Source of the DNA: Moniliella sp. 'wahieum'
Lineage: Eukaryota
NCBI GenBank assembly: GCA_003971905.1
Contig: RSEE01000004.1
Location: forward strand, 806,001-870,000
DNA: 64,000 nucleotides
Direction: 5' to 3'
Each line of letters begins with the position of its first letter. Position 1 is the first letter of the stretch. Both the position numbers and the translations under genes were made by a program. Below the pieces are notes generated by a model. The model did no database searches and was not told the origin of the DNA. It worked only from the letters and a program-made list of their open reading frames with translations. Shown here one piece after another: positions 13,805 through 64,000 of this stretch.

Positions 13805-16800
13805 GGAGGCAAGAGGGCAGGCAAGTGGGATGGAAGGGCAGAGTGAGGGGTGGTTAAGCAAGAGACAACGGCCAAAGAGAACGAAAGCTACGCAGTCCTT
13901 AGCCGGAAGAAAGATGAGGTTTGGGGGGTTAAGGGGTGGCACGGAGCTCACTATACTGGGGAGGCGGCAAGGGTAATCGACAGCTAAAATGCTGATATGA
14001 GAGAGAGATAACCAGGGTTGTCAGTTACCGGTTACTGGTTACCGAATATCGGATGGAGCCGCGGGGTGTGGGATACGGGAAATGACCCAAGACCAATAAA
14101 AGTGCGATGTTGAGTAACGATGAACTCGAGACCAGGTATTGGGTACCGGATGCAGTAATCGCGATGATGGCTAGCCAATCGGTCGCTTGGGCTTACAGAA
14201 AAACCAGTGCACCCCTGTAAAAGTAGCACATTCCTGTCAGGTCAGAGGATTTTCACTAGCGAGGGTGCGAATGACGAGGGCACTTGGGGATGATTGCGAG
14301 AAAAAGAACGTACCGAGAACTTCGAAACCCTTTCGCCGGTGTCAATCTAGCCAAGTGAAGGCTGTGGCGCAGTTGCTCAACCTGTTGCCGTGAGAACACC
14401 AGGGCAGGGTTGAACGTTGAAGCTGGAAGGCAGAGGAAGTGTAAGTGGGTGAGTACGCTCCAGTCGAAGCATCATCATGCATCAACGCATATCAATCTGC
14501 AGACACCATGCATCGCATGGCAAGGCAAGCATGATACGTGATGATGGTTGCACGTTGAACGTGCACGACGTTCACAGTCCTCCACGCATTCGAGCTGTGG
14601 ATTTCTCCAGGCTGTGGGACGTACAGAGGGAGAGACAGCGGGAAAGAGGTAGCGCTGTCGCAGGGCTCGGTGCTGAGAAGGGTCGACGAGATCAGACAAA
14701 TGTGTTGGGCGGATAACAGGGGCAGGATGGGTAGGGCACTTAGTCGATAAGGCCTAAGGGCGAGGATGTGGGTGTGGGATGTGCGGTGAATGGTGGAAGG
14801 TCTCTGGTGGATGTCAATGATCGATGGTGCCCGTATAGCGAGCGCCTTTTGCTGGCCCAGGCAATCTGCTAGTCACTTGTACAATCACTTGCACAGTCAC
14901 TTCGCCGAGCGTCTAAGCTTGTGAAAGTGGGGTGGGCGGCCGAAAAGCGGGGTGGAAGGGTGGAGTTGCTAGTACAAAGGTTACTGCCCCTGGGTAAGCT
15001 GGTAAGAAAACCTGAGACGGAAGCAGGAAGAGATGCCCGCTGACCCGACGGCGGCGTCCAGCAGAGAAAAGAAGGCAAGGTGGGGGGGAGGAGGGCTAGG
15101 GGCCAAGCAAGGGAGTGGGGGTCGTGGGGCAGACGGCACAGGAGACCCACCGAGCGGACTGCGACACTCGAGAGCCGAGAGGACCCGAAGCGCAGGCCAG
15201 AGCAAACCCCCAAGCCACCTGCGAGGAAGCGTCAGCGCGTACGGGCCCAGGCCCAAGCCTGCAGCATCTCGTATGCGATGAGGCGTAGAAGGGCGTAGCA
15301 AGGCCTCAGTACTTAGTGCACATAGCCAGTGCCTGGCCGCCTGCCTATCTAGCTTTGCTATCTCCTTCTCAGCCCCGTCACCGTGACGGGTGACGCGTGA
15401 CGCGTGAGCTCACCGCTCACCATCACACGCCCAGACGCCCACCCGAACAAAGGAATACATCTCTTTTCCGCCCAGGCGACTGCTGGGCTCTGCTGTGGCC
15501 GCCACAGCAGGATGCAACATTCCGACACGTCAGGCCTCAGGCCAGCCTCAGGGCGCCAGCAACCCAAACGTACGCAAAATGGCCCAAGGCCCAAGCCAGC
15601 ACCACTGGCGTCTGTGCGTGTCACGCGTCACGTGCACCCCCTGCCTCGCCCCCATCATGCACCACACGAGTTTGCGTTGCGGGCCAAGTGCTCGGATGTG
15701 GCTCCAGCGCTCCAGCTCTGGTGCGTGTGACACTGTTGGCCCGTTTGTACGTACTGGCATCCAGATCCAGACCCCCAGCGGTTCAAATAAACGAGTGCTC
15801 AGTTGCTACTTAGTAGTAACTAGTAAGTACACAATTGAGTACGTACTGGGTACTGATTGTCGATTGCCCTATCAAAACGCCCGTTCAAAAAGCCGACATC
15901 GGATGTCTGACGGGCTGACCCGACGGCTCCTATCGACAGCTCAACGCAATGATAAGAACAGGTGCAGCTGTCCAGCCACTGCCCAGCCACCGTTCAGCCA
16001 CAGCCCACCCCGCGGCTCCCTATCCGCACGGGGCTGCTTGCGCAGTCCGATAGCGGTTCAAAAGTCCCCGGTCGCAGGTCACCGGTCACCGGACACCGGC
16101 CTCACCGGTCTCGCATCATCGATGGCCAGTGGCCCCAGCACAGCGCCACTACAACGTAATGCGCAACGCGTAGCAGCGGCTTAAAGCTTAAATTTTAAAG
16201 CTAAGGCTTAGCGCTTAGGCTAAGCTTAGCGTTAAGGCTTAACGCACGTCCGCGTGACGCGTGACTCATGTGCTGCTCCGCCTCAGGCTGAGGCCTCAGG
16301 GCCTCAGGGCCTCAAATATCGGTGATGTCACAAGCCGCGACCTCCTGAATCCATAGCATTGGCGCAACAGGACACTTTCAACAACGCCTGCGCCTACCTG
16401 AAGGCAGTTATGTAATAGCTCCTACCAATGCAAGCAGGAGGGACTCGAGGGTTCGCCAGCAGGCCAGGATATCGGTCAGGCGTCGCTAGGAGACTCCTGG
16501 CACTCGTCTCGTTAATCATTCGCTGCTATCCACTCGCAGATGGATCTGCTCTTTTCTAAAAGAGGACAAAACTTGAAGGGATGGAGCGTCAGTCGCGTGT
16601 CATATAAGCCACGCGCTTCTCACGGGTCTATACAGCCAACTTCTCTACACTGAAGGCGGCCTGGTGCACCTGATGCAAGCACCCTGATGGCCTGCGTGAG
16701 AGGTGTCAATCAACGCCACCGATCCACTTTTCCAAAAGCCTCACTAGACACTGCAATATAATTCACGCTTCTCCGACAGCTTCAACTTTCCCGCCCTTGC

Positions 16801-17242
16801 CTGGGTACTTACCATGGGGAAACCTTGCGATCATTCGATAGCTTCCCTCAGCATCAACATTTTGTTGTGACATGTGAGAGCATGATATAAGCGCAGACCG
16901 TGTACCACCGAAGGTGGTACATTCAGCGGGAGCACCGCGATACCTTTGAAACGCCGGGAGAAGGAGCTGCTTCCGATTCTGGAGCAAGCAGAATGCGACA
17001 AGAACACCAAGTACTAACTCCAGAGGGACGCACCCAAGAGAGCATTTTTCCCCTGTTGGTTTTGACGAGACGCGAGAGGGTATTATGCCATCAAGTCAGC
17101 GGGTAAGATGCTTGAGCACTGATGGAAGGATTTGACTACTGACTCTCAATGGAGATGGTTCGCCGCTCGGATCTCTACCACGTTCATCCGTAACCACACG
17201 CGCTTCCTCGGGTATGGGAACGGATGGCGGGCACCAGAGGGT

Positions 17243-17390
17243 CCTGATCTCCTCTGACAATTCCCCTGGTTCCTTACGCGGGGTTGGCGCTATCAAAAGC
17301 AGCACACGCAGGATGAACGGGTCGGTTTAGGCGCGGCGTTTCGTTGTCCCAACCTTAAGCTCTGTCAATGATATAAATGCAGTATAGAGA
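17243..17390 (-). mobile_element. Repeat family A copy 1 (Helitron-like 5' terminus)
   Basis: Minus strand reads A|TCTCTATACTGCATTTATATCATTGACAGAGCTTAAGGTTGGGACAACGAAACGCCGCGCCTAAACCGACCCG. Homologous to four other copies in the window; homology starts at A|TC. Confidence 0.6.
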
Positions 17391-18753
17391 TACAGCAGCC
17401 CTATGACCATCCCGAAGGCAAGAAACCCGGTTGTGGCTGCGTTTCTGATGTGGTGAAAACAGGTTTATGATGAGAGTGTGGCGATCAACAAACACATGGT
17501 AAGAGCGATCAAAAATGAGGACACACAACAGGGGTAGGGGGCAAAACGTAAACATAATATACAAGTGGGGATGAGTAATGTAGGAGCGTGAAATCGCCCG
17601 GGGCGGGCCATCATACACAACAAGAGTGGTATAAGTGCCGCAGTCGTGTCGCCTCTTTTTATACAGCCCCCATATTGTATTGGGGCGGGGACATGGACAT
17701 GAAGTGAAGTGAAAAGACAATGGAGACAAAAGTACTCTCATCATGTGAGCGAGGGCTCTTAGAAATGGTTTACATTTCTGCATGCCAAAACGGCATTGAA
17801 CGCCTCTCTCCGTCTTGAAGGATGAGGCGATATGAGGCATTGCGGTACTCGATTACGTCCGGATGAGGATGAGGAAACGGTTGTAGGCATTGCGGTTGAT
17901 TGCGGAATATGACTCCTCATTGTCAGGGCTAGTCACCTTGGTAACCCCCGTCGCTCCCTGCAACGCCTTGTGCACCGCTTCGGTCGAAGGCACCCAGACA
18001 CGGGCCACCTCCTCCGCCCCGACTGCAATGTGAATGTGAGCCATGGTGGACAGCGAGTAAGACCTTGAAACATGGACGAACAAGGTGTGTCAATACTTTA
18101 TATGGCAAGTTCTCTGCGATCTCTGCCTTCGGGCGTCGCATCGCGAGAACGGCGGCTCTCTGTAAAGAGGAGTAGTAGTATACTCACTGGAGACAGCACG
18201 CCGTGATGGAGTAGACGAGATGGACCGAGCGTGGGAGTCAACGGGGATGGAGGAGTGAAGGGGAGGTGGATGTGGAGGGAGAGGAGAGGGAGAGACAACC
18301 AGATGTGCCCCCATAGTGTTAAATACAAAATGCCTACTGCATGTGGCGTTGTCGGGGCGCAGCTTAGGAGCAGGGTGTCCTACCCGCCCTAATTAAACTT
18401 CCATACAGCTGTGGTGCGATCCAACTATAGACAAGCCTGCTCGGCCCGGCCTCCCCCCCATAGTGCACCCGTGCTTCCCCGCATCGGCCCAGATTCTGGA
18501 GACAACCCCACATCCTCCTGTCCCCACCCCTCCCCCAACCCCCACCGCCCACACACATCTTTTTCTATGTCTGTAACGTCTGCTCCCCACAGTGTCAGCA
18601 TTACGCTCATCTTTATTACACACACTCACGCATCCACAAAGTTAGTTTTGTGCTCCACGGACAAATGGGTACACAATACATGAGTTCTTTTCCTTCTCAT
18701 TCTTTTACCACCTATTAGTTGTACACACAATCACTTATTCATTCCAAGGCATT

Positions 18754-19856: not shown

Positions 19857-20306
19857 TCAATCCCTTTCCAAGTCTAGGCAAAACAGGTGAGCAAACAAAT
19901 ATCGCCTAATGAGGGGGGGGGGCAACGAACTGATGCTAGTCCCGAATCGAGCGTAGAGCTTGACCTTGAGTTCCTTCATGGACGCTTCAGCTTCGTCCGC
20001 CTCGGTCTCGAGTTCCGAGATGCGTTGCTCGGTACGCTCAGCATCGGCCTGAGCTCGTTCCAGCGCCAAAGGTTGAGAAAGGTGCACAAAGGTAGACCCA
20101 ACGAGGTAGGGAACCTTCTCATCTTCATCGACCAGCTCCAGTTCCATGATCAAATCGTCGAGCGCCTCCTTGTCGTCCCGTCGCTGGGCGAGCAACGCCC
20201 GCGCATCCGCCAGGACCACGTCGAGCCGACTGAACTCGTTGATGGACTTCTGGTCCTCCCACGACACTACAGTGTCATTCTCCTCGTTGTCATTGAGCAT
20301 GCGCAT
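19857..20306 (-). CDS. GIM3: Prefoldin subunit 4
   Basis: VSWEDQKSINEFSRL...ELVDEDEKVPYLVGSTFVHL...MKELKVKLYARFG. Intron ~19930->19874 (GTTCGT...GCTCAC...TAG) restores the conserved C-terminus SINLERD*. Confidence 0.93.
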   Translation of the reverse strand: MRMLNDNEENDTVVSWEDQKSINEFSRLDVVLADARALLAQRRDDKEALDDLIMELELVDEDEKVPYLVGSTFVHLSQPLALERAQADAERTEQRISELETEADEAEASMKELKVKLYARFGTSISSLPPPLIRRYLFAHLFCLDLERD

Positions 20307-20472
20307 CGTGCTGGAACGTTGTTGGTGCGATCAAGGTGGAGGGGGCTCGTGTGGCTGCGATCGACTTTAAGGGGCGTCAAGCTTGAAGGTGGCGCGGCAC
20401 GAAGGGGCGGAACTGTAAAGCGGAATTACCTCGATAGCTACATGAATTATTGAAGGCCAGATCGTATCATCC

Positions 20473-20568
20473 GGAGTAGTGACGCAGCGGTTAGCGTGTG
20501 AGATTGCAATTGCTCGTTTACGAGTAGCTATCATCTTGAAGTCGTTGGTTCGAGTCCGACCTACTCCT
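20473..20568 (+). tRNA. tRNA-Cys(GCA) with ~23-nt intron
   Basis: Acceptor GGAGTAG/CTACTCC; D-arm ACGC/GCGT; anticodon stem TGAGA/TCTTG around TT-GCA-A + intron; T-arm GTTGG-TTCGAGT-CCGAC; followed by a T-run terminator. Confidence 0.92.
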
Positions 20569-24100: not shown

Positions 24101-24341
24101 TTCTACCTCGTCCGCTTCGCTCAGGGAGACAAGCTCGGGTGGCCCAATGGGGTCCAGCTCGGACGTACCCGCAGTGGCTATGACACTGCACCTGGTTGAC
24201 GACCCAGCGTTTGCATCGTACGTGCCCTGGAGCAGCACTTGCACCTCCACTCTCTTCCTCCCACGGATGGCAGCGCACGAGCTGGGGCCGCGACTCGAGG
24301 TGGCGCTGCAGAACGCGACGGCCGGGTTTGGGCTCAAGTAG
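21115..24341 (+). CDS. HECT-domain E3 ubiquitin ligase (multi-exon, frameshifted)
   Basis: HECT motifs LSVSWVGEEAVDGGGPRREW, LGPGDLRAILCG, WNAAQRSSLLSFVTG, and catalytic PWSSTCTSTLFLP...LEVALQNATAGFGLK*. Intron ending ...CCTAAC...TTCTAG at 22365. Confidence 0.88.
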
Positions 24342-25736
24342 GGCTTGGTACAAGTAACGAACTCATTTCCAACACTTGCGATAATCTGGATAATTGCTAT
24401 TGTCGAGAATGCAAGGACTGAGGTGGCCTACTTTCCTATGAATAGATTGTACATTTGGAAGAGAAGCCCCCCCTGCTCCGTTTTCTCGTTACACACCACT
24501 AGTTCATTGAGAAGATGCATGTCACGAATGAGGCGCCCCAGCTTGACAATCAGCTATACTGCGAACTATCTCGTGGAACGTCCCGTCTTCAAATTGGACG
24601 ACGGTGCGTACCACAAGATGCGCGCAACGGTGCCATCTGTGCACATTCGCCTTGGCAATGAGAGAAACGCCACAGAGTGCGGGGTTGAGCTTGAAGGCCA
24701 ACATATGAACTCGCTTGCCGTTACGAGCGGGGCACTTGGCAGCAGAGACGAGAGATAGCCTCGTGTTGTTGAACGGGCCTCTCGATGCCCAACTTTCAAC
24801 CACAAAAAGTCCTTTGAATGATTCATGCCGGGTGCTCTTCCACATTCGCTAACACATCGTTTGCACCGCGTCGTACACTCCTCCGGATGTGGAGGTTCTT
24901 GAAATCAGCCAATGGTTATGATTGCCTTCGGCAGCCGCCGTAACTAAGTGTGCGGAGCGCAATGTACCAGTAAAGCAGGGCAGTTGACATGTGTACAGGT
25001 GAACCCGATGAAGGATGCAACGTGGATTATCTCAGTAGGCCTGTCTCATGGTGGTGCTGCACCAATCTTCAACACCAAACACGGGCCCGACCTAAGGTCA
25101 TTATCATAGTCAACAGTTCAACAGAAGAAGCAAAAACTCCACTTTCCTCGACGCCACACCCACACTCCACAATCCGCCCCACCGGCCCCGCACCGCCTCG
25201 TCTGTATCAAAGGCATGCCAAGTGTTCTCCTAGTCTGTCGAACGAGTAGCGGTGAGTCGAGGCGCAATAGAAAACCCTGGAAACCTAGGACACGGTCAAA
25301 CCAAAATCCTTCAATCCACCAGTCGAGATCGACAGAAACAACCTGCGGAAGCCCGGTCACCGGTCACCGGTCACGCTGCCGCTTTTGGTGTGGCTTGCGG
25401 AGAGGCGGCAGGGGACTGGCCGGGAGCGGCAGAAGCGGCGCCGAGCGGGACCACGTGCGCGCGTTATTACGGCGCCACATGCACCACTGCAGATCCATCG
25501 GTTGCCACATCCGTAGCCAATCAACCACCACCAGCACAACCCCCACCACCATGCTTGGTCCTGCACCAATAAAGGGGTTGGTTGGAGGGATGAGACTGCG
25601 TTTGGTTCTCTCGACCCATCTACAGTCTCCACTCCTTCCTTCCCGTCCCGCTTCAAGCACTCTTCCCGCCCCGCCCACCTGCCCCCACGCTCTTTGACTT
25701 TGCATCTCTGTGGTGCTCTCTCCCGAACACGTCGCG

Positions 25737-30999: not shown

Positions 31000-31876
31000 T
31001 TGGCCAACAATGGCCTTCAGACCTGTGGTTGTGTTGATACCTCTTCACTCGGACTCTCCCTTCCCTCTTCCGTTCCCCCGCTTTTATCTTGCAGGCGCCC
31101 GAGCCCAACTCGCTTTGACGATTTGTACCCCCACCCCCCTCTCCCTTATTTTCCAATCCCTTCTCAACAAGCGAGTTCCTGAACTTTCAAACCCCTCTCA
31201 TTTCCCATCCCGCGCCACCACCTTTTGCGGCCCTGTCTTACTCTACCCCACCAATTCCCACTTGCCATTGTACTCTTCCTCTAACCTCGTCTGCATGTAT
31301 TATATGTTTAAGACACTGCACCACCGCCTCGTCTCCTCCCTGCTCTCTCTTTATTTTACTACCTGTAGATGGCTGAACTGTTGGTTCGGCCGTTGACGAC
31401 CTGATAGATGCATTTACGTTTCAGTCCATCTCCTTTTTCTGGCACTCTAGACCGACCCCTGTTTTCGTCAAACCAGACACTCATCTACACGTAGCGATGC
31501 GAGTGCCACCAGCGTGGCATGCATATACCAGACGATCCAGGTACGAAGCGCCACGGACCTCTGCTAACGAATATTAAAACAATGAATGCAGCTGCCAATG
31601 AACCGATGCTTGAAGCTTGAAGCGATATCTTTGTACGATTTTATGCGATCTTATACACTGGCACGTCCGATGGACCAAACACCTTTTGGGACCTCTACCT
31701 GGGAATTCCTACCAGAAAGCTCAATAGCGTTTAAGCTCCTACTATGCTCAGATCAAGACCCTTGCCTGATAACTTTAATCCCTCTTTCTTCTCTCGCCAT
31801 TATCACTCCTAGGCTCTTCCCCCTCACGTCGGAGGGGAATTTTTCGCTACTATAATACCGTACGAGGAGACCACCG

Positions 31877-31937
31877 GGCGTAGCGTTTCCCTGTCCCAGC
31901 TTTAAGCTTTGTCAATGATATGGATGCAGAGTAGAGA
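31877..31937 (-). mobile_element. Repeat family A copy 2 (Helitron-like 5' terminus)
   Basis: Minus strand A|TCTCTACTCTGCATCCATATCATTGACAAAGCTTAAAGCTGGGACAGGGAAACGCTACGCC. Confidence 0.6.
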
Positions 31938-32158
31938 TGCATAGCGCTTTTCCCATTTTAATATATAGTGTAGAGATAGCCTCTGACGGATGACCGCCAA
32001 TTCGTGGACCGCGAGAAGGAGCGAGAGCATCGAGAATAAACGAGCGCAGAAGACATGGAGCAAGAAAGGCGTACTGATTGTCATCACAGGGGGGGAAGAG
32101 CGAGAGAGGCGCGAAACACAAAACTTGAAGCAGTCGTGGGAAGGGGAATCATTAATCA

Positions 32159-33978
32159 TTAGGCAATATGTGTACGATAGTGAGGTACTCGCACCGATGA
32201 GATGTTACTAAGTCGTCTTCTAGGGGCGGACCGGGAGGTAGGATTCCAGTTAGAATACATGACCAGTTCACGGAAGTGGCAGGTAATGGACATGAACGTC
32301 ACAGCGGTGAAGTAAGTGGGAGACAAGACGCCAAAGACAAATATGGCGCCAATCGAGGTGAACTCGCTCCGGTTACGCATTGTGATCCCCACTGAAGTCA
32401 TGATGCAAACCATGTTGAGGGCCAAGAGCCAAACGGTGATCTTGAACCCTTCAAAGGACCGGTACAACTCACGCCACCGGTGAGGTGGATTAACCGCAAA
32501 GCTGGACACGAGCAAGGCAGAAAGTTGTGAGATAAAGTAAAAGAAAGCCTCTCGAAAAACAAGAAGGAAGAAGAGACCGGCACGGGAGATGACTTTGGTC
32601 TTCATCGCCGAAGGGTCGACTGTACCATAGGCACCATACTTTAATGAGGGGATGGCATGACGCAGCGTAACTTGGAACCAGCCCTGGGTCCAGCGCATGC
32701 GCTGTTTAACCAATGCCATGAGTGTCTCAGGTGCCGTCTCATACGATTGCACCTCAAGCATGTACTTGATCCGTGCACCGGAAACAATGGCACGTAGTGT
32801 CGAATCAATGTCTTCGGTAAGCATATGCTTTTGCATCCCGAGGGAGCGAAGCAGCGAGGCATTCCAATACCCGTTCGAACCACCAAACAAACCAAAGCGA
32901 TGCGAGCGAGCTCGTCCAGGGTGGAACACGCCATAGATCATGTCAAACTCTGCTGCGATTAAGCGAGTGAGCCACGTTTCAGAGAAGTTGTAGATACAGC
33001 ATCGACCTTGGATAATGTCCACATCACCCTTGTTAAACGCGCGAGCGACCCATTTGAGAGCGTAGCGGGGGGGTAGTGGTCAGTATCAAAAATGGCAATG
33101 ATTTCTGAATCGGATGGCAGAGAGAGGAAGTAATTGATATTGTCGGCCTTTGATGTCGAGTTGGGAACGAAATCACATGCAGATGCTTGAAAAGTGTTGT
33201 CATCTCTTGCAGCTCCGTCTCGAGAGGTTCAATAGGCTTGGGAGTGTTGTATACCACATTGATTCTCAAGCGCGAAGCTGGGTAGTCAAGCTGGGTCAAG
33301 GCATAACGGATCTGCCTCTTGATGATGTATTGCTCATTGGGAAGGTAGGCAACAAGCACGATGTCCATTTTGGGGCATTTGTGCTCATTCTCCTTTCCAT
33401 CCAAGTCCGGGAAGCCAACCTTGGCGACTTTGCGACGAGCCCGCCGAGACTCAATATTAGGCCGGATGGAGGCAGTGGCTTCACCGAGGACAGCGATGAC
33501 AACAAATGTCTGGATCCCAATGTAAGCGTACCACAGCCCCGCGTTGAGCGATGCCGGGATAAGGATGTAGAAGAAGAGGCTGGAAACAAAGTACGTGATC
33601 ATCAACGTGAGAGGGGTCCCTGCAAAGACGCAACAGTCACGTTAGCTTAGTCCAAGCAAAAACTCCATATGGGGAGTGCACCACACATACATCCAATGAT
33701 CCATGTTGATGCACGTTCAAACGAAGGAAGGCGCACCAGGGATGTCATGGTCGGATCTTTCGTAGGGGGGGGGGGACGCCCAAAGGAAAAGGGGAGTCGC
33801 GGCGGAAGGGATGTTGTATTGTCCGTGCCAGGCCGTGGAGAGCTGGTCTTTCAGTTTAATGAGGAACAAGCTTTTATACTTCGTACAACTTTGCATAGTT
33901 CCCGATAAAAGCTTTTCCGTTGAACTTTGACTATAGTGACTTGTTTTCACAGTACTTGACGTATTACGGCTGTGACAT
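32159..33978 (-). CDS. Processive GT2 glycosyltransferase (cellulose-synthase-like, membrane-bound)
   Basis: LVAYLPNE, IIQGRC, FGGSNGYW, LTEDID and QRMRW (QxxRW) motifs with N- and C-terminal TM segments. Intron 33690->33621 GTATGT...GCTAAC...TGCAG. Start uncertain. Confidence 0.88.
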
Positions 33979-34159: not shown

Positions 34160-37100
34160 ATAATCGATGATAAACGATAAAACGTTAAACACGTTAAACG
34201 TTAACGTTAAACCCTTACTCAGTACTCACATCTGATGCATGTGATGAATGAATGATCAATGATTAATCGATTGCCAATGTTTCAATTACTGCTCCTAAGG
34301 CCTAAGGCCTAAGGCCTAAAGCTAGCTCCTGCAGCTTACTATCGCTTCGCGATCGTCGATCGGACATCGAATATTAATACCCGACTGGGAAACTTGAAGC
34401 TTCACTCAGTACTCAGAGCTTCACCAGCTGTCAGTGACTAGTGGTGACTAGACCTCTGACGTTCTGGAACTGAGGTATGCTGGGATCAGACTGAGCGCTG
34501 AGCCTCAGCAGCCTCAGGCTGAGGCTTGAGGTGCTGGGGCAAAACAGCTGTTGGGGGAACACAGCGAATGGGTACGAACTCAACAACGATCTCTCTTCGT
34601 GGCCGAACAGATGCACAAGGGAAAAGTGATGCTTTACCACAGGTTATACCACCCACCTTTTGAGTACATACTCTCGATTGCCACACGCATTTTTAAACAA
34701 TATAATGAGAGGCAACTGGCGGCGTTTTGCATTGCACATGAGCGACAGAGAGGCTATAGAGCCAAGATTGCTGGGCCATCCACAGGAAGAGAGCAAGGAA
34801 AGAAAAGCACCGAAGGGATTCAGTGGCTTTTTTGGAAACCTGTGTATGTCATCATGTCATATGTCCACATGTCATGATGTATAGAAACCAGAGATGACGG
34901 GTTCAGGCCCACCTGGTCATACATAGTCACCAGGTTTGTTGGAGCCTCATCATTTGTTCTAGACCTTGTTCTTCCTTTGCCTATGATATGATCCCCTTTC
35001 TTTTCTCTGTGTGATTCAGCTCGCCTGTTATCTTCTCCGAGGTGGATATATCATCGCCTCCTTTGTCCTCAATGATATGATTATGTGTGTGTTGCATTGC
35101 ACATGAGCGCTGAGCTAGTACAGAGGCTAGAGAAATATTCCCGCGCCCTTCCTGAAGGAGTAGTATTGGAAAGAATGAACCGGAAAACGACCCGAACTTG
35201 GGCTACCACGCAGCGCCACTACACCAGTGTAGCCCCATACATGATCACAAAGTCCGCGGAGCGCACCCGACACACCCTGCCACACCCCAACGATGCGGAA
35301 CACACACGAAAGGACTGGGTTAAGCTCCGTGCACAGCACTCGGTACGAGGATTCTGTTGGCCTACGCTCATTTTGGAGTGCGTACTCAGTAACCTCTCTG
35401 AGTGAGAATATCTTTTGACTGAGTATTAAACCAACTACAAGAGTAACCTCAGGAGGTCAGGCCCTCAGGCTTCAGGTTAAACGTTAATGCCTCGGAAGTA
35501 CTCGCGTATACTGTTGAAACAGTAGGTTACGCGACTGGCATAGTTTGGCTGATCTCACTGGCTTACTTCCCATTTCCATTTCTCCGTTCCGAAGGTCTCG
35601 CTCCTTCCCTGTTCTTCCGCTCTCACCGTGTCCTCTGCTCTTGCTTCTTCCCCACGAGCGATTGCTACATCCCTTGGCCTAGTCCCGACTCTGGTCTACC
35701 TCGCCTTGGCCCCGAGAGACTGTGACAGCGACGGTTGGCCGGTTACCGGTTACGCGCGGTTACGCGTTAAGTGTTACGCGTTACGCGTTTTAATTACGAG
35801 TCCTAAGGTTTCAGGTTTCAGATCTCAGACCTCGGCGCTACCGTGTGACTGGTTGCTACCTGAGGTTCAGGCCTGTGAGCCTGATCGATGATCATCGATC
35901 ATCGATCAATGCTCGATTGCCAGCGCTTCAGGCTGAAGCTCTGACGCGTGGCGCGTGACGCGTGACGGTTAAGTTGCGGGCTCTGCGGTCAGACATTGCC
36001 CCGGCGTGTCTCGTATTCATCCTCGCTGTCACAATCATCATCTCTCCATGCCATACTGCATACCCGGCCATACGAGCCCAAGCCCCATTTTCTCAACTCG
36101 ACAACACACTCACTCACAGTACGCCCAATATTCAAAACATGTTCGACGTCCTCAGGCTGAGTCTTGAGCGCCTGAGCCTAGGCCGTAGGCGTCGACGTCC
36201 TCGATCCTCCAACACGTGTATAGTATTGAGTCTCGGAACAGTCTCGGCACCCATATTCGTATGCTTATTGGTATAAATATAATCGGTACGCGGTGCCGAC
36301 TGTAAACCAGCGTTCCGCACAGCTTTTTAGTGTGGCATGTTTGGCATGGATACTATCGTTGACATGTCTGTGTGGCAAGTATGCCACAGAGGTCACATGC
36401 TCATAATATCCGAGAGATACTTGATGCACTCCGAGATCTGAGATCTGTGATCACACTGTCACATGCCCTGTCGCACGACGGGTGTGATGTGAACGGGTGG
36501 ACAGCCTTGGACAGCTGACCAATGCCTGGCTCAATATATAGCTTCCTTCCTGAGGCCTGATTATCGATTATCCATTAATGCAGGCTACTATGTCAAGCTC
36601 GCAAGTCAGAATGATTCATGAGCATCGAGTCTCTCACAGTGTCCACACTGGTGCACTCATACTCATCAGTACCATCAGTCGTGCGCTCACATTAAATAGT
36701 CACAAGATTGATGATATTGATGCGGGGTTGCCTGTGACATGTGCATGTGATGGTCATGCACATGGTTGCTCTTGGGTGTTTAGGTAGCGCAGGCTGAGCG
36801 CATCTAAAAGATCTTGCTGGTTACCGGTCACCGATCATGCATCATGCATCATGGACGGTTCGGGCTGTATTGCAGTCTCGATCTCACCCCCGAAAAAACA
36901 GGAACCGAAGCCCTCGTCCGCCAGATGAGACGTCACATGCACATGTCACATGTCACAGTCACGCGTCACACAGCTGAGAAAAGTGCGGACCCGCCGGCTT
37001 GGCAAAAGCTGTGGTATGCAGCACTACCAGAATACGTCCGAGCGATGGAGACACCGAGGATCTAAGAGTGGAGGGTTTTGTCACTTATTCATGCTTACCG

Positions 37101-39623: not shown

Positions 39624-40699
39624 TAGTGACGATGCGGAGAGGGGAAGAGTTGGATTTTTTGATGTGGCCCGCGGCGAGTGTGACGGTGCGGTGGAGGCCT
39701 GAGCGGGCTTAGAGATCTGACGGCAAATCACATCTGCTATTAGATGCACACAGCTATCCCATGAAGTGTTTGTCACATGTCAGTACTCAGTCTACGTACT
39801 CAGTGTTATCCGTCCTTTGAACAAGAGCAATGCATCATAGCCATTCTATATTCTACCACACGGTTACGGATGAGATATATTCCGGTTACCCATTTAACCG
39901 ATTTTTTGCATGTTAAAAGTCAGGACTCCACGGTCCTTAGTAACTACTAGTAACTACTAGTGACTAGTTAGTCATGCTGCCTGCTATCTGTCACACACAA
40001 GACTTCCTACGCGTCAGATTATGTTGGGTTCCCGTCCCTATTCCATAGCCACAAAACAGCAAACAACACATTTAGCCGTTCCGCGGGCCGGGGGGGACGA
40101 AGAGCCCATTCTTCAGTTGGCTCACCGGTCGTCCCCCTTGGCCAAAATCATGGCCCGCCGTCATGGCAATTGAAGGGAGCTTCGCCGAGTACGTCTGTAT
40201 GTATCCAACACATTCTGTGAGTTGTGAGTTGTGAGTACAGTAGAGTGTACTTTAGGATACTGAGTACTGAGTACTGACAATTGGTGATAATACTATGTGT
40301 CTCCAGGCCCCAGGTCAGAGCTTCCAAGCTTCAAGCTTCTCAAGCTTCACGCGTTGCTACACTAGTGACAATTTAGCGTCTACTAATACTAGCTAGTGCT
40401 AGAAGTAATGACCACCAAGTACTAATCAAAAGTCGTCAAACGCACCGGCTCTCATAGATCATATATCACAAATATGTCCCAGAAGTCAGGGTCTCGGTTC
40501 CGCGAATTTCGCCGCAGACAGGCAACGGAGGTGGAACAACGAACTGATGGAAAGGAATGGCTCGAATGGGAATAAGACGCAGGATTTGTTGAGGAGGACG
40601 ACAAGAAGTCTTTGTAAGGTCTATCCGACAGACAATGAAACAGAGAGTATACCGATCGTCAGCGCCCCATCTACACGTTTGTTTAGATGACAACATCAA

Positions 40700-49072: not shown

Positions 49073-49528
49073 TTAAGCTTTAAGGTTTAACGTTCACTCA
49101 TGCACCTGCATGAGCATGAGCGCATGAGCGCTGTTGAACCTGAGCCACAGGAGCCTTGTGACATGTGACATGTGAATGAAGTCGGAAAGCAAAACCCATC
49201 CAGGCGGCATAGTAGTCCGTTTCGGAGATTCCGACGTTGATTATCAATGATCGATGATCTATCCTCCTTCCTCGGCTCCGGTTGCTGGTTAATATACGCG
49301 CGTTGCGCATTACGCGTTACGCTAGTTACTATTACTGGCTTATTTACTCTCGTTCCCCCCCCGCACTGTTGTGACAGTGACATGCGATGTGGCGGGGAGA
49401 GAGCGCTGCGGGTGCAGCAACAGTGTCTTCGCGGTGAACCAGTGAGACCACGTCTGAGGTCAGAGGGCCTGACCGGCGGACCGGCTGACCGCCATAATAG
49501 CCTACTGAGCCTGCCTGAGCCTGAAGAG

Positions 49529-49808
49529 TGTTGCGACGGTGACTGGCTTCACCGATCGCGGTGCACTTCCGGCTTCATTAGCTCCGAGGCTCCGCGGGCT
49601 CCGAGTGCTGCTGATGCGCGCGTACCAGCGTAAGCCAACGACTAGTAGCCTTCTCCTGTAACCTTATTTTGTCCTGCTTCTCCTACCGCCAACGCCTAAT
49701 ATCTCTCGCCCGCAATCGATCGCCTACGCTACTGTCCTAATCGCTTCAGCATCCATTACGGTCTCTATAGCAGAGTGGCCAGGACGCGGCCAGGACGTCT
49801 TCGCTGCA
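49529..49808 (+). mobile_element. Solo LTR (family B copy 2) with perfect 4-bp TSD
   Basis: AGAG|TGTTGCGA...TCGCTGCA|AGAG; TG...CA termini with short imperfect inverted repeat; paralog at 44423. Confidence 0.8.
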
Positions 49809-50119
49809 AGAGGTCGAGGAGGTGAGTTCGACTAATTTGACCCCCCCCCCCCGCAGACACATCCCTTCAATTCGGCGCTCTCGGGGGGGCATGGTTGTGA
49901 CGTGTGCGTGATGTGTGATGCATGTGTACGTTTTCACTTTTAAAAGGGGTAGTATGAGTCAGTACCTGTCAGTAGACTCATACTCCGTATTCATACTCGT
50001 ATTAATAGTTTACCCACGAGAATATTTGTATGGTATTCATCCTCAATATTCAATGCTCAGGCCCTGAGCGCCCTGAGCGCTCAGCTGAGCAGTCAGACTG
50101 ACTAGTAACTGTGACAGTT

Positions 50120-50172: not shown

Positions 50173-51818
50173 GGCTGAGCGCTGAGCGAGAGGCTCCCAA
50201 TGTTTTCATATATATCTACGAATCATTTCTCGCGCGCAGAGCCTATACTGTAAAATAACTTTTGTTTTCTGTGGTCCTCTCTTTTAATTCGTGGCATGAT
50301 GCATGAGAGGGCACGCACCTTTTTTTGATAGAACCGTCGTCACTTGTATCCGCAACAGCTCTTCGAGCTCGCCAGGCTCACCCCAACACACAAATGTAGT
50401 AATCACATATGTGTGGTCATCGCAACACAGATCATACGGCTTGAACGTTTGTTGGGGTTTTGGTCGAATATCTGTAGGCTCGGTTCCCGACGGCTATCCT
50501 TATTCTTCATTCGAATAGCAAGCTACATTCGAGACTTTCTCATCTGCGCCTGCATTTCCTCTCTACCCCCAAAGTATATATAGTACCTGTGGTCTTCTCT
50601 TTTTATCACTCTCTTCTGACCTTCGTTCGCGGTGAATATTATATGTTCTTCTTCAATTTTCTTCGTCTCTTCTTCCTTTTTTTGATACAATTCCGACATC
50701 GGTTTTTGAAGACATATGAAGCCACTGTGTCAGGAAATGGGGAGATGGAGGAAAGAGGGGCAGATGAATTCTTGGATACATGTATGGACGGAGTGGAGGT
50801 ATATTACGTGTACCTCCTATAAGGAATGGGGCACAGTTGAGAGAGGTGGAGATATGATCTCCCAACCGATAAGAATCACGCCATACAGGCCTAGTGTTGG
50901 CCCAAGGGCCCCTAGTACGGCGTGAGTTTGAAGACACACGGTCTTCTCACGACTGTACACTTTCGTCTTTTATGGCTCCCAAAAAGAGTTTCCATATATG
51001 GCCATATTAGCGGGAGAAGATGACCTCTTCCCCTCCCCGACCCCGTATCAACAGAGCGAAACATATTTTTTGGCTCCCACATAACTGGGCTTACCACACC
51101 GTCGGACATTCCTCCTTACACAACCACAACACAAAAGTAAGTATGACTACCACAACAACAAAGACCTGAAAGTGTCACATAATATTGATGACAGTCGACC
51201 ACGCGGATCATATAGAACCCTCTATTGTGTCTCTTTTCAGTCGCGCGTAGTGTCAAGCACTTCACAGGACCCAAACATGTGGCCGTTTTCGGATCGCATC
51301 ATATGTCGATCGTATGTACCAGGAGAGGAATAAAAAGAGATGGTTAAAATGACTTCATTCGCTCTCTGACTTGGACGGATTGAATATCGATTTGCTTAGT
51401 AGAGGCGCGCTACGCCAATGCTTTATAGGGGTAGGTGATAAACCAAAGACTATACACCAACAATTACAAAACTCATACACGCGCTTGGCAATCTGTACTG
51501 AATGGTTGCTACTTAGCCTTCCTTTCTTGGACCTGACAGACACTTTTTAGGAGAAGAATCCAATAGCATCAGGAAGTAGAACCAGTCTAGCACAACGGTA
51601 TAGAATCACCCAGAACGTTGGTCAATTGTGGTGTTCTCTTATGATTAAAAAGAAAAAAAAGAAGTAGAGAATTGAGAATGACTTTCCCATTTCTTGAAGA
51701 TCAACGTCAACAGATTGTTGTGCGTTGTTGAGATACTGAAGACAGGAAAGAGAGCTGCTCGGCCTCGAAAACCTCATATGGTTGCCGAAATCTTTAGACG
51801 ATCTGGCACGATAGTCGC

Positions 51819-53538: not shown

Positions 53539-53573
53539 TGTAACATGTAAAGCTTAAAGCTTGAAGCTTGAAG
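53539..53573. repeat. TNA + palindrome heptamer array
   Basis: tgTAAcatgTAAagctTAAagctTGAagctTGAag. Confidence 0.9.
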
Positions 53574-53946: not shown

Positions 53947-53982
53947 GAGTTGGCCGGGAGGCATCTCAATATCTTTTTCCCA

Positions 53983-54173
53983 ACTCCTCTGGCCTTCTGG
54001 CTTAGATCAAGTGTAGTATCTGTTCTTATTCAGTTTGACAACTGTTACGCTGGGCACTGCCCAGCTGTACTTGTCATTCCACTCTTTGTGATTTCGGCTT
54101 CCATCGCCTGTGCTTGCACATGAGGTTCACGAGTGCCGCTTCTCTTACACTCTGGTTGCTAGCGCTCACCACA
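53983..54173 (+). ncRNA. U2: U2 spliceosomal snRNA
   Basis: GGCCTTCTGGCTTAGATCAAGTGTAGTATCTGTTCTT (stem I and branch-point-recognition GTAGTA); stem IIa CAGT/ACTG with downstream complement TTGTCA; stem IIb GCTGGGC/GCCCAGC; 3' hairpins. Confidence 0.93.
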
Positions 54174-54689
54174 ATCTTTTCCTCTTCATCATGCTCCTCG
54201 GGCTGGTCGTTTCTATGAGTTACTTTTTCTTGTTGCCCACGTTCTTTTGTGATAGTAGATCTAGCTTCGTACGTGCGTGGTTGGCATTCTCTTATTCATC
54301 ACAGCCGCTCCACGGGTCTCAGTTGGTATGTCGCCAGGGCAATCCCCTTCGTTGCCACCGGTGCTTGTGCATCGGCCTATTCTTCCGGTTGTTGGGAGGA
54401 TCGTCCCTTATTCACCCCGAGTCATTTGGCCCTCTTTATGGGCCTATGCGTTCTATTAGCAACATGCTCACCTATAATATCAGCAGCCGTTATGCATTCC
54501 ATTCCGAACCGTTAGGGACATGGCGCACCCGTCCTCCCTCTAAAGACCCGTATTAGGTGCATCAGGCTTGAGGTGAAGGTGTAACAGGTCAATGGTAAAA
54601 ATGCACGCCTTAGCGGCACAAAGAATGGGTTTTCACAGTTGAAGAAGCTTTGTTGAGCGAAATGTACCAAGGTGGTGTCCTTCAAAGCC

Positions 54690-56270: not shown

Positions 56271-57745
56271 ATGCCACCGACGCGCCCGACCCATCCTCCA
56301 AGTCTGCGCCGGCCCTGACGCAGGGTGAGCTCGAAGACGCGCTTTTTGTCGCTGGCTGTTGAGGCACGTGCGCTGCTTGGCCTCGTTCCTTCCTCCTACA
56401 CCCCACGCGGCAAGATTGACGGCATCGACACTTTCGATGTTGACCGACGCAAAGTTACAGCCCATGGCATTGAGGACGCTGGCCTAGGAGACAAGAGCGA
56501 GACCACCCTGCTCACCGGTTTGCGGTATTGGGCACCGGTGTTCGCCTCTATCCTCCCTCGCTCTCGAATTTGCTCGGGTGGTTGCCGCCCATGCTCCCGC
56601 CGTCTTTGCCGGCGTTCCTGAAGCACTTTTCCCCGCGCATGGGCCAAATGGAACGACACTTCTTACCTCCTGTCCCGCATGGGTGACCGCAAGGTCAAGG
56701 TTGCTTTCACTCCCAATGGCCGCGCTGACGACATTGTCACCCTTCCTGCTGGCACCCAAGGGCCATCCACGGACAACAAGGTCTTCGCTCTGCCATACGA
56801 AGCCGAGCTGTCCGTATCCCATCCCTCTGTCCGCGTTGACCAAGGCATTTACTGACATTTCTTTTCCTACCCTCTTAGCACACATTTACAGAGCTTTTTG
56901 ATGCTCTGCACCCTCCGGATGGCTCAGATGGCCCGCTGCCTACTTGCAATCCCAAAACAACAATCTCTGCAGTCCCGACACTCCGAGGTGATTTTTCTCC
57001 TCTACTAGAGGACCTCCTAAGCACCTCTGTTGATCTCCCTTCTGGAACCCACCCAAGGGGGATGAATCTGACGGGGCTAGCACCTCCTCTGGTACGCTTC
57101 CCGGCGCACATGCTTCGCATTCTACCAATGGACCTCACTTGCTCGACGTGCCCTTGCGTCGGCAGTGTATGGCGTCCCACCCGAGGCAGTCACGTATGGT
57201 TTGGTACGACCACGAGCGCCAGTCGTTACACAAGGACCACTACGAAAACATCTTTGTCGTCATCAAGGGCATCAAAGTATTCACTCTTATTCCGCCTTGG
57301 GAAAACGCTTGGATCGAGGATGACAAAGTGTACCCCACTACCGTTGGGCGCAAGGATGGCCAAACGACGCGGCCCCACTCCGCCTCTGACTTGCATCTGG
57401 TCCAGACTGATGGCTCGACCCCTTGGCTCACGGTGGATCCCACTCTTCCTCCTACCTCGGGTAGGAACCGAGGCGAAAAGAGATATGCACGTGGCCAACG
57501 CACCCCCACTCATCCCTCCCATTAGGGGTGGTTCGAGCTGGAGAGACACTTTACCTCCTGCTGGGTGGTACCACCACGTATCTCAAGCGGAAGATGTGTC
57601 GCCCAACCCAAGGAGACAGCCGTGATCGGGCTCACAACTTTTGGTACGATGTACCTCTCAATGATCGCTGGGCCTGGACCAACTTTGCTACTGCCTTGCG
57701 CAGCAAGCCGACGGTACGCACAACCCGGACATGGACGAAGCCTGA
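56271..57745 (+). CDS. JmjC/cupin-8 dioxygenase (JMJD7-like)
   Basis: VAFTPNGRAD, YLQSQNNNL, SLHKDHYENIFVVIKGIKVFTLIPP (HxD), VRAGETLYL.PAGWYHHV (distal His), NFWYD; frameshifted. Confidence 0.85.
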
Positions 57746-60765: not shown

Positions 60766-63383
60766 TCACGCCATTCCCTGCGCTCCTTCCCGCCCTGCCT
60801 TGCCCCGGCCCCGGCTCCCACTGCCAGCAGGCGCATCCGCACGGGGCAGGGGAGGGACCGCAGCATACAGTGACGCCGCAGCAGGCTCGACCCCAGCAAC
60901 GTGCGGGGCGGCCATCGGGTGGCCTTGATCCCTAACGGCGGGGATGGCGGCCGCGACCTCTTCCTCTTCCTCCTCTTCCTCCTCCCCCTCTCCATCCTCC
61001 TCCAAGTTGGGCTTGCGGTGGAACTTGTACACGTGCTGGCTGAGCGCATGACGCGTCGGACCAGCGTAGTCGTTGCATATAGTGCACTCGTACGGCCGCG
61101 GTCCCGCATGAATCCGCATGTGCCAGGCAAGGGCGGGAGGAGAGCGAACGACGCGGCCGCAAATGGAGCAGTGATGCCTTCACCCTTCTTGCCCTTAGTA
61201 CCAGGCTTCGATGCGGGGCGAGAGCTAGCAGTAGAGCGGGCCCGCTTCGCCTGTCCCCCCCCAACCGAGCTGCCTGGGCCGAGTTCTTCATAGCCGCATG
61301 TGGGGCTGCAAAGCCAGTGGATGCCTTTCCCTTTGCAGAGGGAAGAGCGTCTGAGTCCGTGGCAGATTTGCGCCGCGCCTTGGAGTTCTCCTCGCGATGA
61401 TGCTTGTAGATGTGTTGGTGAAGAGCATGACGGGTGGGGCCTGCATACTCTGAGCAGAGTACACTGGAACGGCCGAGGCCCTTCATGAGTGCGGATGTGC
61501 CAAGCTAAGGCTGGAGGTGAGGTGAGCGAACACTTCGCCCACACACGGGGCATGTCAAGGCCGAGCTTCCCTGCGCATCGCCACCAACACGCTTCGCACT
61601 CGCGCCAGGCGGTTTTCCCTGGGCACCGGAACCATTGAGGCCAGTAGGAAGGCTACCTACCCCGTTCCCAGCCACCGCTTGCATACCCGTAGCGTGGGCA
61701 GACCCCGTGGTAGCCATAGGTGCAAAGGAGGACTCATCTTGCTCATCGGCACGAAGACGGGATCGCTTCTTTCCCCGGGGGGCTGCTGAGCTCCCCGTTT
61801 GGACTTTGCACCTTGAGAATTGGTAGCTGGAGCGTTCGGATCCGAAGCTGCATTCTCCATTGGGTGACGAACGTCAGGGGGCAAATGAGAGCCGGTTTGG
61901 GGAAGCCAGGGTACTCCGGATTTTCACCAGGCGCAGTACCCTTGTATCGACCCGCATCTGATGGGCGAGGGGTTGCCTGGTTCAACCCCGAACGCTTGGA
62001 CCGCGACGCTTTCGATATAGATTTGGGGTTGACCGACATTACGCCGGGACTGATTGAAGTAACGGGGGCCGACGGGTCTGTTCCGCCGACAGAGGCAGAA
62101 TGGTGGTGGGCCGAGTAATACGGAGAAGACTGGACCGAAGACCCTGACTTTGACGCCGACGAGGCATGCTGAGCTTGCGCTTGTAGCATGGACACGCCCG
62201 ATGGTAACCCCGACGCAGAGGACGAAGGCAGGATGCCCGATCCCGCCAGCGTAGCCGCCGGAGGCAAGCTAGGAACCGTGACCGGAAGAGGGCTGGTTCC
62301 AGGAAAAGGAGACACCTCATTGGATCCCACAGCAGAGGCAACGCTAGCGCGGGCCTGGGTGCGCCTGCGCCCACTGGGCCGTGAGGGTCGCCGCGATGAA
62401 GCGGGAACAGCAGTAGGAGGAAGATTAGATTCCGGTTCCACGCCACTAAGACCCGAGGAGGCAGGGGAGCCTGGAGTCCAATATTGGCCGAAGCAGCCAG
62501 CCCGACAGGGGACATTGCCGCATGAGTTGGAGTCATGTTGGGGTGATGATGGGGCCCGGGGTTGGAGAGCATGTGGGGGGATGGGGCGTACATATGTTGC
62601 CCGTATTGGCCAAACTGGGAAGATACTGTGGCTGCACGACCTCGGTTTGGATCTGTGCCTGCATCTGTGCTTGCACCTGGGCCTGGGCTTGTGCCTGAGC
62701 TTGGGCTTGAGCTTGGGCCTCCGCCTGGGCTTGAGCTTGAGCTTGAGCTTGGGCCTGGGCGTGCGCCTGGGCGTCAACTTGTGCTTGAGCTGGGTGCTGC
62801 GCATAATGTTGCTGGTACTGCATATGCGACGGGGTATACTGATCGTACGGTGAAGATTGCGTATACTGGGGTGAAGGGCCTGGAGCAGGAGGCGGAGGTA
62901 GAGGATGAGGCTGCGCTTGTGATCCATGTATCTGGGGAGGAGGGAGAGCAGGGGATGCAGTCGGAGGGGTGACCAGCCCCATGAACGATCGGGATAGAAT
63001 CGCTTGGATCTCGAGTCCTCCTCCAAGTTCTGGAAGGTCAGCATAGGATCCGGGAGGCCCATGTATCCGCCCTGCGTACGAGACGAAGGATCGTTACGCA
63101 CTACACGCCCGTCGTACCCGCGCATCTCACTCATGCCAGGATGGAAGCCGGAAGGATGAGAAGCGTGCTGAGAGGGATGCGATAGAGCGTGCTGAGCCAG
63201 TGACGAGGCACCGGGGCCGCCCGTCTGAGCTTGGGACAAAGCGGAGTAGTTATGCGGCACGGTAGACGCGCCGGCAGCGGTGGCAACCCCGTGGGTGTAG
63301 CCGTGTGCAGGCGGCACACCGCCTGCTGGCCATCGAGGGGGCGGGGGCGCGTGCATAGGGGGCGGTGGGGAAGACGCGGTCAT
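60766..63383 (-). CDS. C2H2 zinc-finger transcription factor with Gln-Ala repeat
   Basis: CPVC...LAWHIRTHEGPRPFQCTLC...HALHQHIYKHH and a second pair ...HMRIHAGPRPYECTIC...LSQHVYKFH; (AQ)n tract at ~62650-62780; Pro/Ser-rich N-terminus. Confidence 0.85.
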
Positions 63384-64000
63384 CGGCCCCACGTGTCGGC
63401 CAGCGGTCGCGGGACATGGATCCACGCGAGACAGAAGGGGGAGGGGGGGGAGGGAAGGGCGGGGGCGCGCTGCGGGAGGTGGTGGCGTGCGGGAGCGCGT
63501 CGGAGAGCCCGCGCGCCATAAGCCATGACGAACATCCACAGCACAGCACAGCTGGGCACAACCCACAAGCGGCACAACCGGGGCCAGGCTGCACATGCGA
63601 CGCATCACACAGGCGCCCGGCGGTGGCGGATTCGGAGCTCGAGAGCAGCCCAGTGCGCCGCACCAGCCCCGCGTCGAGCAGTGTGCTTGCGTAAGAAACG
63701 AGGCTTGAAGCTTGAAGGCGGTATCTTCCTGCGCTGCGCGGGCGGCGTAGGGCTCGGGCCGCGCTCTCAGGCCGGGCGCTGAGCGGCGCTGCGCTGAGCC
63801 TCAGCCAGGCAGCGCAGGGGCGCTGAGGCCTCCTGGGCTCAGGTCGGCCTGAGAAAGGCGCTCGCTCAGCTGAGCGGCTGCGTGGCTGAGGCTCAGCGCT
63901 TCACGCGCTAAGCCCTGGAATGCGAACGTTTCAAGTTGGCACGAGGTTTACGCGTTTTGAAATTTGACCCCGTCTCCAACAAATGCATCCCTGGCGGCAG

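Follow-up and report, generated by a model that had tools for sequence, protein, structure and literature searches.

The stretch described here comprises 64,000 nt of the genome of Moniliella sp. 'wahieum' (contig RSEE01000004.1, positions 806,001 to 870,000 of the forward strand; hereafter the window). It carries a few recognizable genes and a large number of short arrays in which a TNA triplet (N being any base) recurs every 7 nt with a 4 bp palindrome between successive triplets, and it is the origin of these arrays that concerns us. When the 285 stop-to-stop open reading frames (ORFs) of at least 90 aa were searched against Pfam (E ≤ 1e-4), only five domains were found; these are listed with the RNA genes and the arrays in Table 1. 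In origin the window is nuclear and belongs to a fungus in the Ustilaginomycotina. The top named relatives of the glycosyltransferase-2 (GT2) ORF at 32159-32941 (minus strand) are in Violaceomyces palustris (65 % identity), Tilletia horrida (62 %) and Sympodiomycopsis (62 %), with two further relatives at 85 % and 78 % identity. The G+C content varies between 45 and 64 % along the window.

The arrays had been noticed in an earlier reading of the sequence (the original prediction), and at every coordinate that it listed an array of the kind described is present, although the one at 36433-36447 is ordered palindrome-TGA-palindrome and not TNA-palindrome-TNA. At a period of 7 the window has 39 exact tandem repeats with two copies or more, and 50 shuffles that preserve dinucleotides average 2.98; at the neighbouring periods there are 5 (0.9 in shuffles) for period 8 and 59 (12.5) for period 6. 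The repeat unit is a single base followed by a 6 bp palindrome in 26 of the 39, and all 26 have the form A-xyy'x'-T, which is equivalent to TNA plus a 4 bp palindrome, a type that makes up 448 of the 16384 possible 7-mers (2.7 %). The shared geometry thus holds, and it extends well beyond the exact repeats: the 10-mer consisting of two TNA triplets around a 4 bp palindrome occurs 93 times, in 64 clusters, where 8.9 occurrences are expected and the maximum in 40 shuffles is 19. At least 12 different palindromes had been claimed, and in fact all 16 possible 4-base palindromes are used as spacers.

Comparison with shuffled sequence, other spacer lengths and non-palindromic spacers, as the original prediction had proposed, shows that only the 4 bp palindrome is enriched. 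Non-palindromic 4 nt spacers between TNA triplets are no more frequent than in shuffles (138 versus 150), and the 2 bp (29 versus 35) and 6 bp (4 versus 2.3) palindromes are flat. The specificity for TNA is equally clear, as the control cores ANT (10 versus 9.2), CNG (11 versus 22.8) and GNC (15 versus 22.1) with the same spacers are also flat, and when both triplets are required to share their N, TNA yields 77 pairs (2.35 in shuffles) and none of the 15 other cores exceeds 12. The middle base is identical in 77 of the 93 matches and differs in 16, in 5 of which it is complementary, and this preponderance of identity over complementarity shows that the pattern is a direct duplication containing a small inverted piece and not a mirror image. 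These counts confirm that the repeat grammar is real in the window.

The form of the basic product is apparent from the sequences flanking the 10-mers. Agreement with the 7 nt period beyond the 10-mer is 0.60-0.76 at distances of one and two bases and falls farther out to 0.29-0.45, which is background. Of the 77 pairs that share N, 25 have the flank match only on the right and 28 only on the left, so that 53 are one-sided, while 16 have it on both sides and 8 lack it; in the 56 isolated pairs the corresponding numbers are 20, 19, 9 and 8, and the two sides are not independent (chi-square 8.66, p = 0.003). The one-sidedness identifies the basic product as the 12-mer TNAxy·y'x'·TNAxy or its mirror form, and these occur 41 and 44 times respectively, against 0.13 and 0.10 in shuffles. 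Likewise, T precedes 85 of the 96 occurrences of the 11-mer NAxy·y'x'T·NAxy. The proposal that each event adds 7 nt, made up of an inverted copy of two flanking bases plus TNA, is therefore borne out, as is the claim that every product carries two TNA sites. The same design with a 5 nt repeat and zero, one or three extra inverted bases was seen 9, 13 and 0 times, at or near chance (for zero extra bases, the period-5 TNAxyTNAxy, a hand estimate puts chance at about 6). There is in addition a signature of microhomology: of 39 one-sided events, 17 have a fitting next base on the side that lacks the match (p = 0.029), and a both-sided fit is found in 9 of the 56 isolated pairs where 1/16 is expected (p = 0.008). 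When the products are followed along the sequence they form 80 chains, 70 with one event, 8 with two and one each with three and four, and a chain of one event is only 12-13 nt long, or less than two copies.

This last observation bears directly on slippage of microsatellite units, which the original prediction had dismissed, and which could be entertained since the quasi-palindromic units might form hairpins. With 70 of 80 chains at less than two copies, expansion is not their source, a single grammar at a prior of 2.7 % would not be expected to account for two-thirds of the period-7 repeats, and perfectly palindromic units of period 6 or 8 are absent from the tandem-repeat rows; slippage is disfavoured. 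Selection for cis-elements, be they binding sites of transcription factors or stop codons in every reading frame, can be considered together with it, as a period of 7 places TAA and TGA in successive frames, but sixteen unrelated spacers do not constitute one binding site, and N in the 26 arrays shows little strand asymmetry (G 10, C 9, A 4, T 3). We regard slippage and selection as very improbable.

The length of the duplicated unit can be determined from rarer products in which more of the original target is retained. At 10 TNA-centred loci both copies of a 7 bp sequence abTNAcd are preserved with one to six inverted-complement bases of a copy end between them (for example, CATCAGT+AC+CATCAGT), whereas other centres reach 4 at most. 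With copies of 5 or 9 bp the TNA signal is absent, and at length 5 there are 21 TNA-centred loci compared with 6-19 for other centres. Plain 7 bp duplications with a non-palindromic junction were found 5 times (0.13 expected), the hybrid spacer b'a'd'c' 3 times (0.2) and variants with a single palindromic (P) nucleotide 3 times (0.25). The duplicated unit is 7 bp, abTNAcd, and from the retained, plain, hybrid and single-P products it follows that the main product is one in which two (indistinguishably three) inverted bases of one copy replace an equal number in the other. Three other schemes were dropped: a 3 bp target-site duplication (TSD) with filler from the element ends, because the flanks template the filler; a 5 bp TSD with two P nucleotides, which suits the main product but not the retained 7 bp copies; and snap-back on a TNA triloop, which would also yield 1 bp and 3 bp stems, and these were not seen.

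An explanation that needs no nuclease is template switching during replication, in which abTNAcd is copied, synthesis turns back briefly over cd with the opposite or the nascent strand as template, the strand re-anneals at T through 1-3 nt of microhomology and TNAcd is copied again. Both the microhomology gradient and the direct-inverted-direct make-up of the product are in keeping with it. Nevertheless, it offers no reason why T.A should be preferred over the flat A.T, C.G and G.C cores, nor why exactly two to three bases should be inverted when spacers of 2 bp and 6 bp palindromes are flat, and full 7 bp copies with filler are what the joining of two ends predicts. We think template switching distinctly unlikely.

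The original prediction also had the arrays confined to non-coding DNA. Codon bias is too weak for a self-trained codon model to be usable for exon calls, and ORF length was used as the proxy for coding sequence. Only 10 of the 64 clusters lie within stop-to-stop ORFs of at least 200 aa, where 25.6 are expected (p = 3e-5), a proxy that is imperfect and partly circular because TAA and TGA are themselves stop codons. The claimed confinement is supported in part. All but three of the clusters, those at 1377, 6541 and 8221, fall in one long zone (Table 1), and they are densest at 14.0-16.9, 33.9-37.3, 39.7-40.5, 48.9-50.3 and 53.1-53.7 kb. A pattern that is site-specific, templated by its flanks and depleted in long ORFs does not resemble an artefact of sequencing, amplification or assembly, and we know of no platform error with a flank-templated TNA signature. 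Furthermore, its decay by point changes, seen both in the 16 of 93 pairs whose N differs and in near-palindromic spacers such as GGCT, has the look of evolved sequence, and an artefact seems to us barely credible.

We think it fairly probable, from the pattern of the products, that the arrays are excision footprints of a transposase whose 7 bp target duplications are centred on TNA and which closes the flanking DNA into hairpins; the scars would then probably record heavy past traffic of a cut-and-paste element or family of elements. The transposase would insert at nnTNAnn and duplicate the 7 bp abTNAcd, and on its departure the flanking ends, both finishing in abTNAcd, would be closed as perfect hairpins. 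Host nucleases would open these 2-3 nt off the tip to leave P nucleotides, and hairpins are a natural source of inverted bases of this type. Opening three bases off the tip would give the 3' overhangs A-cd-d'c'-T and A-b'a'-ab-T, the end bases of which could pair A:T and T:A, and since the T at position 3 and the A at position 5 are complementary and lie symmetrically in the target, the opened ends would anneal in register. The annealed joint would hold a 4 nt mismatch bubble that replication would segregate into right and left products, ab TNA cd·d'c' TNA cd or ab TNA b'a'·ab TNA cd, each with a net gain of 7 nt and a 4 bp palindrome between two TNA triplets, while patchy mismatch repair could produce the plain and hybrid spacers. 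It is the transposon as agent, the position of hairpin opening and the annealing and heteroduplex step that we infer here.

Several features of the data would follow from such a scheme. Segregation of one heteroduplex joint into two products would explain the near-equality of right and left counts, and annealing by paired bases would explain both the exact gain of 7 nt and the excess of sites with extra complementary flank bases. As every scar contains two TNA targets, renewed hits would build short arrays, and we read the arrays as the result of repeated hits on a scar-doubled target and not of slippage. An insertion of 7 nt shifts the reading frame, so scars would survive only outside coding DNA.

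[quoted passage not shown] TNA has been termed the classic Harbinger target pattern (PMC12477816), TNA/TWA is the PIF/Harbinger target trinucleotide (PMC12477816, PMC4561436), and a TNA core is what is found here. This attribution is not supported, however, as the duplicated unit is 7 bp and not 3 bp and TNA-TNA at a period of 3 is flat (53 versus 45). Moreover, PIF/Pong-type elements such as mPing excise precisely by means of their 3 nt TSD overhangs (PMC4561436), whereas here scars are the rule. Spacers that are templated by their flanks, and that comprise 16 palindromes, cannot be element ends. Footprints of PIF/Harbinger elements with a 3 bp TNA duplication are thus quite improbable.

Closer parallels are provided by elements that hairpin the flanking DNA, which include hAT, Transib, MULE and RAG (PMC5499845). 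A duplicated target whose junction carries short inverted flank copies is the classical mark of insertion and later excision by an enzyme of this type. Ac/Ds footprints contain palindromic flank copies formed via hairpins, favour microhomology and fall into a few predominant types in one fungus (PMC4561436, PMC5873905). The scars in the window likewise keep both target copies and have short inverted flank copies at the junction, so that the flank-derived palindromic nucleotides characteristic of hAT footprints are present, although they differ from Ac/Ds and hAT footprints in their TNA-centred 7 bp duplication, their even palindromes and the recurrence of one dominant product about once per kb. 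The TSD of hAT elements is 8 bp, or 7 bp in hAT7, and the 7 bp copies at 10 + 5 loci fit hAT7 only (PMC12730594). Families with 7 bp TSDs are known in Basidiomycota, namely hAT7 in the rust fungi Puccinia and Melampsora, and in Laccaria Kyakuja (PMC12730594). Kyakuja, of the KDZ superfamily of Agaricomycotina, resembles the present case in the length of its duplication in a basidiomycete (PMC12730594); it has CA..TG termini without terminal inverted repeats and a KDZ transposase, and the window contains no such element or KDZ domain. In the fixed-length scars of Tc1/mariner elements, too, a short palindrome-like filler lies between two copies of the TSD, although that filler comes from the inverted ends of the element and is constant everywhere (PMC4561436), in contrast to the 16 palindromes templated here by each site's own flank. 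The even palindromes point in a further direction.

When the perfect hairpins of V(D)J coding ends are opened off the tip, P nucleotides in even palindromes result, usually a few bases in length, and Transib and RAG make 5 bp duplications. Transib and RAG enzymes form hairpins on the flanking DNA (PMC5499845); in the window the even form xy·y'x' is seen and the hairpins would be its source. The difference is that 5 bp copies have no TNA signal here and nothing resembling random N-nucleotide additions is found. By analogy the process appears to work like a hairpin-forming transposase, but because perfect hairpins as made by RAG/Transib would suit the even palindromes while the duplications there are 5 bp, we assign it to no family.

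A number of observations weigh against the proposal that a transposon left these footprints. No transposase domain was found among the 285 ORFs, and specifically no hAT transposase, no KDZ domain and no ORF of the DDE_Tnp_4 type accompanied by a Myb-like ORF. A search of the window for elements with inverted ends flanked by TNA-centred 7 bp direct repeats gave no candidates at 11/14 matches and, at 8/12 matches, only matches derived from the arrays. An apparent 5.5 kb pairing of 34.2 kb with 39.8 kb was considered as an element and rejected, there being no extended similarity. Footprints of canonical hAT type would show odd palindromes with the complement of the element-adjacent base at their centre, and this signature is absent: of 72 period-6 spacers 16 are of the odd form x-z-x', where chance is 1/4, and only 5 are of hAT type. 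The dominance of one product, with about 53 one-sided pairs against about 20 in all other classes, is more uniform than in the hAT footprints described in PMC4561436 and PMC5873905. When the 53 one-sided pairs are read as TNAxy, N is a pyrimidine in 36 (p = 0.013), a weak bias that the mechanism leaves unexplained. Neither the text of PMC12730594 nor its Table S1 states a TSD consensus for hAT7 or Kyakuja, and full-text searches, which covered neither subscription-only literature nor Repbase, found no account of the grammar or of a transposon whose 7 bp target is centred on TNA. Finally, all of the statistics come from one 64 kb window, and dinucleotide shuffles are blind to its compositional patchiness.

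A scan of metagenomes with three CGCG-type units found at least 133 stretches, but none of the 131 loci fetched has more than two same-N matches of any other palindrome, and these stretches are single-motif heptamer arrays of other organisms and not relatives of those described here. We note that four of the loci (L048-L051) lie on one unrelated metagenome contig (G+C 0.45) with dense GTCACGC heptamer arrays, at 23-26 matches per 7-10 kb (e.g. L050 4990-5080), which adjoin TCACTCT-type arrays and T-runs; there is one motif only, without the multi-palindrome grammar. Within the window, a segment of about 210-236 nt is present twice in direct orientation, 5.1 kb apart and 78 % identical, at 44451-44661 and 49544-49777. 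The first copy has 13 extra bases directly after TGACT, where the second, which has a 20 nt insertion of its own, reads TGACTGG. The 13 bases are suggestive of two decayed 7 nt events, but the copies are too diverged for this to be counted.

The lack of an element or transposase in the 64 kb would be accommodated by an endogenous TNA nuclease, such as a domesticated transposase, that cuts with a 7 nt stagger and leaves hairpinned ends whose repair writes 7 nt palindromic insertions into accessible, nucleosome-free promoter DNA. The products would be the same as those of the transposon, and the density of 64 clusters in 64 kb also fits. Against this, no candidate gene is present in the window, and both ends need the complete abTNAcd before joining, which a cycle of insertion and excision supplies free, whereas a simple staggered cut would require fill-in followed by hairpinning of the blunt ends; we know of no enzyme that fills in and then hairpins blunt ends after a staggered cut. 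We consider an element-free nuclease unlikely and prefer excision of a transposon as the source of the scars.

Table 1. Arrays, footprint-like products and genes located in the window
Feature	Coordinates	Strand	Evidence
Zone with 61/64 clusters of TNA-palindrome-TNA matches	14023..63967		Pattern count
(TGA CGCG) x2.6	15390..15407		Tandem repeat
Plain 7 bp duplication GCTCACC x2, TCA-centred, non-palindromic junction	15408..15421		Tandem repeat + flank test
(TCA CCGG) x2.3	16077..16092		Tandem repeat
(TGA CGCG) x2.1	16251..16265		Tandem repeat
CCTCAGG+CTGAGG+CCTCAGG, then +G+CCTCAGG	16281..16308		7 bp copies + P-type filler
(TCA CCGG) x3.1	25353..25374		Tandem repeat
(TGA AGCT) x2.3	31608..31623		Tandem repeat
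(TCA TTAA) x2.1	32147..32161		Tandem repeat
GTTAAAC+AC+GTTAAAC+GTTAAC+GTTAAAC, 2 nt and 6 nt inverted fillers	34184..34212		7 bp copies + filler
(TAA GGCC) x3.7; exact bounds (CCTAA GG)x3 CCTAA, 2 nt flank match left only	34294..34319		Tandem repeat + pattern
Composite: TTA with CCGG spacers, then CGCG spacers	35739..35789		Tandem repeat + pattern
GGTTACG+CGC+GGTTACG	35748..35764		7 bp copies + filler
TGA TCGA TGA joined to (TCA TCGA) x2.7	35882..35908		Tandem repeat + pattern
(TGA CGCG) x2.3	35952..35967		Tandem repeat
GATC TGA GATC, 2.1 copies	36433..36447		Tandem repeat
(TTA TCGA) x2.0	36559..36572		Tandem repeat
CATCAGT+AC+CATCAGT	36664..36679		7 bp copies + filler
ATTGATG+AT+ATTGATG	36707..36722		7 bp copies + filler
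TTA CCGG TCA, then (TCA TGCA) x2.9	36821..36853		Tandem repeat + pattern
(TCA CATG) x2.6, then TCA CGCG TCA	36940..36968		Tandem repeat + pattern
Period-10 array AGTAACT+ACT+AGTAACT..., 7 bp copy + 3 inverted bases	39939..39966		7 bp copies + filler
Plain 7 bp duplication TGTGAGT x3, TGA-centred	40216..40236		Tandem repeat + flank test
(TGA GTAC) x2.9	40258..40277		Tandem repeat
TCA AGCT arrays	40325..40349		Tandem repeat + pattern
CATGAGC+G+CATGAGC	49115..49129		7 bp copies + filler
(TGA CATG) x2.7	49157..49175		Tandem repeat
CCTGAGC+GC+CCTGAGC, period 9	50063..50078		7 bp copies + filler
(TGA GCGC) x2.1	50174..50188		Tandem repeat
TAA CATG TAA AGCT TAA AGCT TGA AGCT TGA; four-spacer chain, palindrome and N both change	53541..53573		Tandem repeat + pattern
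(TGA AGCT) x2.1	63703..63717		Tandem repeat
tRNA-Pro(AGG); not in Rfam list at gathering score	10419-10500	+	ARAGORN
Prefoldin	19860-20330	-	Pfam
tRNA, 96 nt, could hold an intron; absent from ARAGORN calls	20473-20568	+	Rfam
HECT	23536-24180	+	Pfam
GT2	32162-33079	-	Pfam
U2 small nuclear RNA gene	53982-54174	+	Rfam, 109 bits
Cupin/JmjC-like domain	57034-57522	+	Pfam
C2H2 fingers	60769-61179	-	Pfam

The window contains several other repeats. A dispersed repeat of about 90-150 nt is present in five copies that are 77-85 % identical (17245-17395, 42246-42397, 39530-39620, 31877-31941 and, on the minus strand, 42583-42637); it has a conserved core ...GCGTTTC.CTGTCCCA.CCTTAAGCTCTGTCAATGATATGGATGCAG... 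and no obvious terminal inverted repeats, and judged by its sequence it could represent either a mobile element of small size or a regulatory module that several sites share. At 15423-15621, between two oppositely oriented CGCG-type arrays, there is a 195 nt stretch with TCA on both sides and 14 nt inverted ends that match at 13 of 14 positions; its left arm carries an extra 18 nt (GCTCACC GCTCACC ATCA) at a TGA, it is present once in the window, and it is possibly a Tourist-like MITE. The region 42767-43019 consists of two copies of a 95 nt unit (90 % identical) followed by 45 nt and 22 nt repeats with GGCCA../TTGGCC motifs. A hexamer/12-mer array of TGGGCT/TGAGCT (about 16 units, at 62678-62794) lies within the window's longest ORF (minus strand, 61746-63800) and is probably a low-complexity coding repeat. 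Homopolymers of about 22 Gs (5782-5803) and 13 Cs (49841-49853) lie in ordinary sequence.

Excision footprints are well known, and those proposed here would be notable for their density, their uniformity and the amount of enzyme chemistry that they record. If the arrays are indeed footprints, the plain genome sequence keeps a dense and readable record of the chemistry of one transposase, at about one scar per kb of the window, in which the nnTNAnn target, the 7 bp stagger, the perfect flank hairpins, the offset of their opening and the microhomology-guided joining can all be read without the element itself; the record would point to a family with a TNA-centred 7 bp target. A simple sequence test, TNA-palindrome-TNA with a one-sided flank match, is available for other genomes. 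Should an element-free nuclease be responsible instead, it would act as an intrinsic mutator with site specificity, one that keeps rewriting regulatory DNA and generates new 6 bp palindromic sites. As excision scars, the arrays would show that such scars can seed heptanucleotide repeats and many new 6 bp palindromes in non-coding DNA, probably around genes, and these palindromes would be raw material for regulatory change.

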